A stretch of 64,000 nucleotides of DNA. Origin: Eledone cirrhosa (lineage: Eukaryota). Both the position numbers and the translations under genes were made by a program. Below the pieces are notes generated by a model that was not told where the DNA came from, ran no database searches, and saw only the letters and a list, made by a program, of their open reading frames with translations. Of the stretch, positions 20,323 through 20,905 are shown piece by piece. The stretch is taken from the NCBI GenBank assembly GCA_964016885.1, contig OZ024743.1, forward strand, positions 67,642,001-67,706,000, read 5' to 3'. How positions within the stretch are numbered: the stretch's first letter is position 1; the number at the start of each line of letters is the position of its first letter.

Positions 20323-20365
20323 ACGGTGCTGATGATAGCTAACAAGCTTGAAACTAGTACATCGT
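20323..20365 (+). ncRNA. Minimal type I hammerhead ribozyme motif (HHR-2a)
   Basis: acggtg-CTGATGA-t-agct-aaca-agct-t-GAA-ACTAGT-A-catcgt: 6-bp stem I, 4-bp stem II, palindromic stem III, GUA triplet 20357-20359. Confidence 0.82.
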
Positions 20366-20862
20366 TCCTGTGTTAGTGTTGAACAAAAAGGTGACGTGGT
20401 TGCCTTAACAACGTACAGCATAAATTCAGGCTGTTCAGTTTGTTTACAAACGAACAAAGCGGGCGCTATAATAAGCGTCCGCTAAACTGATACGTACATA
20501 TATGTATGTATACCTGTATGTATATATATATATATATATATATATATTTTTATATATATATATATATATATATATATATATATATATATATATATATATA
20601 TATATATATATATATATATATATGCATGCTACTGTACGTCTGTATACATATATGTATGTACGTATACATACATACTTACATTTAAGTAAGTGCCGTACTA
20701 AGAGTGAGAAATGAAATTTCGTTTTCATTTCATTACAACTCATCGTTTTCGGTGCGCCTGACCGATTTAACTCACTCGATATGCAAATTAGGCTGCTCAG
20801 CCGTTAATTTTCATAAGGAAAGTATATACTTTCGAACGTTCAACCATCTGGCAGAAGGGTAT

Positions 20863-20905
20863 ACGGTGCTGATGATAGCTAACAAGCTTGAAACTAGTAC
20901 ATCGT
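20863..20905 (+). ncRNA. Minimal type I hammerhead ribozyme motif (HHR-2b), identical to HHR-2a
   Basis: Same sequence 540 bp downstream; GUA at 20897-20899. Confidence 0.82.

Follow-up and report, generated by a model that had tools for sequence, protein, structure and literature searches.

The window analyzed in this work, a 64,000-nt stretch of the Eledone cirrhosa genome (assembly GCA_964016885.1, contig OZ024743.1, positions 67,642,001 to 67,706,000), contains two identical hammerhead ribozyme motifs, HHR-2a and HHR-2b, located within a single 1,072-nt insertion in a (TA)n repeat rather than in a plain tandem repeat. With segment B taken to start at position 20296 and to carry the ribozyme, segment A to span 20492-20740, and segment C to span 20741-20835, the layout of the insertion is (TA)n / inverted A / B-A / C-B-A' / (TA)n. 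The left flank (20030..20094) is (TA)n-rich and represents the likely insertion target. It is followed by an inverted, 5'-truncated copy of segment A on the minus strand (20095..20299), which matches 20492-20740, includes an A/T tract of 59 nt, and shows a single difference in 146 non-tract bases. A palindromic ACGT microhomology (20296..20299) is shared by the inverted and the forward part and marks both the inversion junction and the 5' end of the latter. On the plus strand, the first copy of segment B leads into the inner copy of segment A (20492..20740), whose 103-nt A/T tract is flanked by imperfect inverted arms, then into the 95-nt segment C (20741..20835), which occurs once in the locus and is missing upstream of HHR-2a, and finally into a second direct copy of B and A (20836..21166) with an A/T tract of 45 nt. 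This last copy stops 56 nt before the end of A, followed by the right (TA)n flank (21167..21207). Given that the right end of the insertion, 21166, corresponds to position 20684, these 56 nt are one-sided: the tail-like extension (20685..20740, plus strand) is carried by both the inverted left end and the inner A but is lacking at the right end.

Measured from one predicted cut site to the next, the repeat unit (20360..20899, plus strand) comprises 540 nt with 31% GC and is strongly self-paired; the A/T tract accounts for 103 of these 540 nt, leaving about 437 nt without it. Neither this tract nor the inverted copy at 20095-20299 had been mentioned in the original prediction. With its 871 nt, the forward part amounts to 1.6 units, and two cut sites fall within it. 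Outside the tracts, the copies differ at 4 of 225, 0 of 61, 0 of 29, and 1 of 117 bases, i.e., at 5 of 432 bases in total, so that, judged by its copies, the insertion is young, yet not freshly inserted. No coding frame was found within the element, and a Pfam search with the frames 20686-20919 and 20800-21021 returned no match. On inspection of the sequence, no LTR, primer-binding site, or polypurine tract was evident. Segment C includes the octamer ATGCAAAT (20781-20788), a perfect copy that is one of two in the window and has no listed variant in the repeat family described below; special conservation of this octamer was considered and rejected, as several equally long variant-free blocks are found nearby.

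Other repeats are found on both sides of the insertion. Just upstream of it, two opposed pieces of a LINE reverse transcriptase (RT) adjoin at 19005-19971 (profile positions 147-194 on the minus strand and 1-134 on the plus strand), as in a 5'-inverted LINE copy; being separated from the insertion by the TA flank and a further repeat, they were rejected as parts of the element. Downstream, two related GC-rich hairpins (21265-21372 and 21903-21966, with folding energies of -67.8 and -37.8 kcal/mol), each located between TA tracts, share a common block upstream of and inside the stem and possibly belong to a small nonautonomous transposon family. A 19.3-kb satellite (24949-44256) is built from a 22-bp unit repeated about 879 times, with 86% matches. 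A segment of 90 to 97 nt at 48380-48475 recurs in 85-92% copies at 7358, 15864, 23140, 23647, and 54717, and in shorter pieces elsewhere, and is likely a 3' end shared by LINEs or SINEs. Finally, the region 60990-63875 contains a fairly intact LINE frame of 770 aa that includes an RT and is followed by a zf-RVT piece in another frame; among 112 relatives of a LINE protein of the window, the only species-named matches (60-63%) are from Argonauta hians.

HHR-2a (20323..20365) and HHR-2b (20863..20905), both on the plus strand, are identical at 43 of 43 bases and offset by exactly 540 nt. The hammerhead core CUGAUGA begins at 20329 and 20869, respectively, and the GAAA at 20350 and 20890; the palindrome ACUAGU occupies 20353-58 and 20893-98, and the GUA of the cut site ends at 20359 and 20899, after which cleavage is predicted. 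In both motifs, the conserved core (C3-U-G-A-N-G-A9, G12-A-A-A15.1, and U16.1-H17) is complete; helix I has 6 bp, including one G.U; helix II consists of a U.U and three pairs, closed by a 6-nt loop 2; and helix III is reduced to the single pair A15.1-U16.1 with a palindromic CUAG loop. The G10.1-C11.1 closing pair is absent from both copies and is replaced by the U10.1.U11.1 pair at 20336/20349 in HHR-2a and 20876/20889 in HHR-2b. In the minimum free energy (MFE) fold, HHR-2a is predicted to have an extended helix I (20300..20382, plus strand) with a UAU bulge at 20320-22 and more stems beyond; the MFE of the single motif is -8.7 kcal/mol. Sequence comparison bore out the coordinates, the identity of the motifs, their 540-nt spacing, the cut sites, the palindrome, and the U.U pair of the original prediction, which had also considered helix III too short to stand in the monomer, a point that is supported here.

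A strict descriptor that combined the C3-G8 core with a helix I of at least 6 bp and a palindromic helix III produced four matches in the window, namely, HHR-2a, HHR-2b, and two unrelated minus-strand motifs; it gave no match when applied to 200 locally shuffled windows. The Rfam search of the window returned no match at the gathering score. Both motifs could be aligned to the Rfam family HH9 at a subthreshold level (18.2 bits versus 52), with all core bases matched, the U.U flagged at the base of helix II, a loop 2 of the same length with 4 of its 6 bases scored as matches, and a bulge 1 that is shorter and one-sided; loop 2 and bulge 1 are the elements between which a tertiary contact would form in canonical motifs. 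Subthreshold matches to miRNAs on TA-rich hairpins were dismissed as compositional. Scans of viral, metagenome, and prokaryotic genome contigs for the hammerhead pattern yielded no matches, as expected for an animal repeat. Canonical animal type I hammerheads are described as having a helix I of 6 bp, a helix II of 4 bp, and a helix III of 1 to 2 bp with a palindromic loop of 2 to 4 nt (PMC4209133). The min-HHR form of Penelope-like elements (PLEs), according to the same description, combines a helix II of 7 to 8 bp, a helix I of 4 to 5 bp, an extra base between positions 9 and 10.1, and the G10.1-C11.1 pair, and lacks helix III and loop 3. On these sequence features, HHR-2a and HHR-2b are real type I hammerhead motifs with the canonical animal layout, and the label "minimal" that had been attached to them proved wrong.

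The two minus-strand hammerheads, whose first core bases are at 48568 and 48100 (468 nt apart), belong to other families. They have a long helix II and 8-nt helix III palindromes, and each is found in a (TA)n-flanked block; the 48568 motif is accompanied by a 33-nt inverted repeat (48474-48506 versus 48654-48686), which is again Penelope-like.

The repeat is not confined to this locus. Parts of 20625-21035 are contained in 20 sequencing runs from 15 studies and 16 organisms, 5 of them with a share under 0.2. Contigs were aligned to 20625-21061 (437 nt) at 85% likeness for 4 of the 23 listed runs, the 5 low-share (<0.2) runs and 11 further runs at 0.22-0.78 being excluded from the contig data; none of the listed family-containing runs is on record as RNA, so that these figures have no bearing on expression. 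The alignment included 5,959 contigs from run X1, 68 from X7, 42 from X4 (organism B), and 1 from X5 (organism C). The X1 figure, while not convertible to copy number, indicates a high-copy family, and the contig sequences confirm the family in two further organisms, B and C. The A-to-C junction is bridged by contigs in all four runs, and the A-C, C-B, and B-A junctions are all bridged by family contigs; the single contig from organism C covers 20692-20965 with 14 other letters and two gaps, and one X7 contig extends from B to the start of A. The A-C-B-A order is therefore the family's own, and the 540-nt cut-to-cut unit that had been proposed from the spacing of the motifs is real.

Two observations on contig joints and loose ends concern particular positions of the unit. 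An X1 contig at a depth of 6.3, with a joint of 20772 to 20836, shows a strand switch at 20836, the equivalent of the inversion junction of the locus; copies may repeatedly be truncated at this position, where the extended helix I starts. In X4, four contigs with a loose end at 20858 and another four with one at 20893 match the core region and then continue into unrelated sequence of ~150-170 nt, perhaps reflecting another family with a similar ribozyme.

Within the 43-nt motif, variants are listed at three positions: 20866, where the G.U wobble changes to A-U or U.U; 20873, which is core position 7 (U to C); and 20883, in loop 2. At U10.1 and U11.1, no variant of at least 5% is seen in any of the four runs. 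Since every change from T is accounted for among the variants listed, the U.U pair is a family state, which rules out a local mutation of one copy. Among the 40 of 42 variants listed, variable sites affect none of the 34 constrained positions of the motif versus three of the nine others (p=0.007), a set of positions chosen post hoc; when the wobble pair is counted as constrained, the same test gives p=0.064. As a whole, the motif does not stand out from the remaining unit by lower variability (3 of 43 versus 35 of 296 positions, p=0.45). The pattern of variants in the family favours selection on the ribozyme, with its weight reduced by the post hoc choice of positions, by the two unlisted variants, and by this variability of the motif as a whole. 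That HHR-2a and HHR-2b are identical is a different matter: given the 4 differences per 225 flanking bases between the repeats, identical 43-mers would be expected with a 46% chance. This identity was therefore dismissed as a signature of selection, and, of the recent insertion originally proposed from the near identity of the copies, the youth of the insertion holds on the strength of the 5 differences in 432 bases, whereas the match between HHR-2a and HHR-2b adds nothing remarkable. With about eleven differences from the majority allele of X1, the window copy represents a minor subfamily; it has private alleles at 20374, 20411, 20417, and 20987. X7, a small run of unrecorded kind from the same organism as X1, is dominated by another subfamily, with C at core position 7 accounting for 93% of the depth (42% in X1) and A at 20866 for 76% (5% in X1).

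Several of these data bear on whether the family ribozyme still works. The element could spread passively, with a decayed or nearly inactive ribozyme retained as a relic, a reading that is in keeping with the combination of two weakening features in one motif (the U.U at the base of helix II and the one-pair helix III), with the low in vitro activity of many hammerheads from animal PLEs (PMC4209133), and with the report that only one of nine Xenopus genomic retrozyme dimers cleaved in vitro, the other eight being inactive (bioRxiv 10.64898/2026.07.22.740005). It nevertheless appears unlikely, since the core, the palindrome, and the Watson-Crick positions have no listed variant across thousands of contigs from three organisms while the free positions vary, and the U.U pair is tolerated in the axolotl motif Amex2 (PMC7229834). 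The caveat of the original prediction, which had treated the U.U as a defect, thus loses its force, given that the pair is a family state with a functional precedent in HHR_Amex2. According to the data in PMC7229834, axolotl Amex1, whose helix III consists of one pair under a palindromic tetraloop, reaches 6% cleavage in 1 h as a monomer, and Amex2, with the U.U at the base of helix II, reaches 22%; both cleave much better as dimers. The motif described here, which joins the Amex1-like weak helix III with the Amex2-like U.U and lacks G10.1-C11.1, may cleave slowly.

The ability of the two motifs to form a dimer in cis was assessed with a folding model that describes nested equilibrium structures of single molecules and omits pseudoknots, intermolecular dimers, and cotranscriptional kinetics. 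In this model, the swapped dimer is fully nested: the 2a core takes the 2b site, the palindromes pair with each other, and the 2b core takes the 2a site. For 20296-20925, the predicted energy of the dimer is -227.5 kcal/mol, compared to -229.6 kcal/mol for the free optimum and -221.3 kcal/mol for two monomers; even for this most favorable transcript, the unconstrained ensemble gives the dimeric helix III a pairing probability of only ~0.01. With the start kept at 20296, the dimer lies above the optimum by 2.1 kcal/mol when the 3' end is at 20925, by 6.0 kcal/mol when it is at 20960, and by 10.9 kcal/mol when it is at 21030. With the 3' end kept at 20925, this gap reaches 10 and 14 kcal/mol for starts at 20260 and 20230 and then 37, 86, and 150 kcal/mol for starts at 20200, 20150, and 20095; for starts at 20095 or upstream, it is in the range of 147-151 kcal/mol. 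The gap grows because the 205-nt inverted arm pairs with the inner copy of A in every fold that contains this arm, enclosing HHR-2a and leaving it trapped in a loop. A transcript from upstream is accordingly predicted by the model to form an ~200-bp duplex instead of a cis dimer, and the 5' piece, if cut, would be expected to remain paired to the monomer. Dimerization through ACUAGU, as first suggested, is therefore compatible with the predicted folding of 20296-20925, where it is fully nested and 2.1 kcal/mol off the optimum, but not with that of a transcript that includes the upstream arm. The 540-nt unit by itself folds far more stably than its shuffled versions (z -11.7), as does the tract-free 345-nt stretch 20686-21030 (z -6.3). 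In the predicted fold of the monomer, helix I holds the two unit ends together, as would be expected of a ligation-ready retrozyme monomer.

These folds bear on the original proposal that the locus itself is an active source, in which the dimer of HHR-2a and HHR-2b would cleave both sites of a read-through transcript to free a 540-nt RNA that then circularises. The motifs are intact and identical, the nested dimer is predicted to be near-optimal for 20296-20925, the modeled monomer ends are joined through helix I, and read-through is given in PMC7761336 as the default for retrozymes. Still, the predicted pairing of the inverted arm with the inner A, which raises the gap from 2 to 150 kcal/mol as the start moves upstream, makes release by read-through doubtful at this copy, and upstream of HHR-2a there is no segment C, to which the promoter-like motif is confined. 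An active role of this particular locus appears rather improbable. Given the missing C and the inverted arm, it is more probable that this copy is where the process ended than that it supplies monomers; in the model, only a start near 20280-20320 would permit the cis dimer.

The anatomy of the insertion, in turn, points to Penelope-type machinery. The marks described for PLE insertions in PMC8557442 include a partial tandem, a copy at its 5' end that is both inverted and 5'-truncated, a one-sided extension of 30-40 bp, and a (TA)n bias, and the locus matches this pattern except for the length of its extension, 56 nt. A search of the window for an autonomous Penelope partner found no GIY-YIG domain in the 135 frames that passed the complexity and satellite filter, out of 267 stop-to-stop frames of at least 70 aa, and recovered only RT, AP-endonuclease, and zf-RVT pieces; a crude scan of the window with Penelope-protein motifs also gave no match. 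Between the repeats, there is no frame with RT and GIY-YIG of the kind that defines an autonomous PLE. The repeat could in principle be a terminal (pLTR) fragment of a heavily 5'-truncated autonomous PLE that has no life as a small circular RNA. The insertion anatomy would suit this origin, truncated PLE ends with hammerheads are described as common (PMC4209133), and the ACUAGU palindrome also occurs in a PLE hammerhead from Adineta vaga (supplement of PMC4209133). Such an origin is, however, improbable for a repeat in which contigs from three organisms connect A to C and B without any intervening coding sequence, in which no foreign continuation of the unit dominates among the 19 of 147 loose ends listed, and whose ribozyme shows canonical helices of 6 bp and 4 bp, unlike the min-HHRs that are typical of animal PLEs. 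As for a local DNA duplication or an assembly artefact at the (TA)n, long (TA)n and inverted repeats do assemble poorly and no aligned contig spans the whole locus, but the three copies have their own substitutions and tract lengths (103, 45, and 59 nt), the junctions coincide with the ACGT microhomology and a hairpin apex and not with the tracts, and three X7 contigs diverge at 20724 and soon run into TA repeats, near the end of the inverted copy, all of which makes this explanation highly improbable.

The motif pair very likely represents one young insertion of a high-copy noncoding family, which is likely a non-LTR retrozyme and was likely copied into the (TA)n by Penelope machinery; on those features that can be tested in sequence, the element is a non-LTR retrozyme. 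The published retrozyme cycle proceeds from a multimeric transcript through hammerhead cleavage and RtcB-type closure to reverse transcription by an autonomous element (PMC7229834), and the family most likely follows this scheme. Its multimeric transcripts would cut themselves after GUA, for the most part in dimeric form, with a pair of ACUAGU palindromes supplying the missing helix III. A host ligase of the RtcB type would close the unit-length RNAs of about 440-540 nt into circles, and a Penelope-like RT/GIY-YIG protein acting in trans would nick (TA)n and copy, over more than one round, a template that is circular or multimeric. A second priming event or a template switch at the ACGT microhomology would add the inverted piece and skip the 95-nt segment C. 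From the 1.6 units of the forward part and its two crossings of the cut site, we infer more than one round of template copying, for which a circle or an uncut multimer would be a better fit than one linear monomer. If the inverted piece resulted from a second priming on the same template, this template would have run for about 2.2 units.

A broader proposal, which we regard as possible but tentative, is that of an abundant cephalopod retrozyme shared across species, whose insertions record the Penelope-type reverse transcription of circular RNA, with ~2.2 colinear units across two cut sites and a (TA)n target tract captured within the circle, and whose own octamer promoter in segment C replaces read-through. 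If the circular-template reading is true, such insertions would provide structural evidence for the movement of animal retrozymes, so far missing in invertebrates. With respect to novelty, the ribozyme class, the dimer mechanism, and the formation of circles are already published, dimer cleavage and circles having been described for corals, mussels, and axolotl, so that the idea behind the original prediction was not new. The locus adds a cephalopod retrozyme family; the literature search found no description of one, and the supplement of PMC7229834 might list one. It also adds an insertion anatomy that points to Penelope machinery and a more-than-unit template, and the same search found no such anatomy described for any retrozyme. 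Finally, a natural motif with two weakening features, seemingly kept family-wide, offers a simple test case for dimer dependence.

Among known systems, the closest are the non-LTR retrozymes of corals, mussels, and axolotl (Cervera and de la Pena 2020, PMC7229834), for which dimer cleavage, circles, and RtcB ligation have been demonstrated as a class. As described there, and as at this locus, they are tandem noncoding units with canonical type I hammerheads, a GC content below 50%, a self-paired monomer, and a weak palindromic helix III. At 540 nt, or about 437 nt if the A/T tract is left out, the unit described here exceeds the 170-400 nt given for metazoan non-LTR retrozymes, and the locus further differs in its variable internal A/T tract, the presence of both weak features in one motif, and the inverted 5' piece. 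Expression and circles were shown for those retrozymes; for the element at this locus, both are putative. By the definition of Li, Clavereau, and Pollet 2026 (bioRxiv 10.64898/2026.07.22.740005), which is based on two consecutive units that each carry a complete type I motif with a motif MFE below -5 kcal/mol, the locus is a retrozyme, albeit with its upstream unit 5'-truncated, and its unit is within the 51-972 bp range that they report. The same study argues that vertebrate retrozymes are nonautonomous derivatives of Penelope; its evidence consists of pLTR homology and co-occurrence, mostly in vertebrates, whereas at this locus the link to PLEs comes from the insertion anatomy, in a cephalopod, with no partner found in the window.

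The PLE insertions described by Craig et al. 2021 (PMC8557442) have the same marks as the locus and, likewise, no clear target-site duplication; the locus has no RT/GIY-YIG frame, a unit of 0.5 kb versus 3-4 kb, and the longer one-sided extension. The PLE min-HHRs (Cervera and de la Pena 2014, PMC4209133) share with the locus motif the type I topology, the palindromic 15.2-16.2 and loop 3, and the proposed dimer cleavage, but none of their distinguishing features, i.e., the long helix II, short helix I, extra base, and G10.1-C11.1, is found in this motif; dimer cleavage of PLE hammerheads was reported by Lunse et al., as reviewed in PMC6765202. For another cephalopod, the giant squid, 235 Rfam hammerhead loci have been counted in the genome (PMC6962438). 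Newt satellite 2 is likewise a tandem repeat with a dimer-dependent type I hammerhead and is reported to have an internal snRNA-type promoter, as cited in PMC2220036; a literature search linking this satellite to an octamer and a hammerhead found nothing relevant. The octamer in the locus unit recalls this snRNA-type promoter and could have a similar, putative promoter role here.
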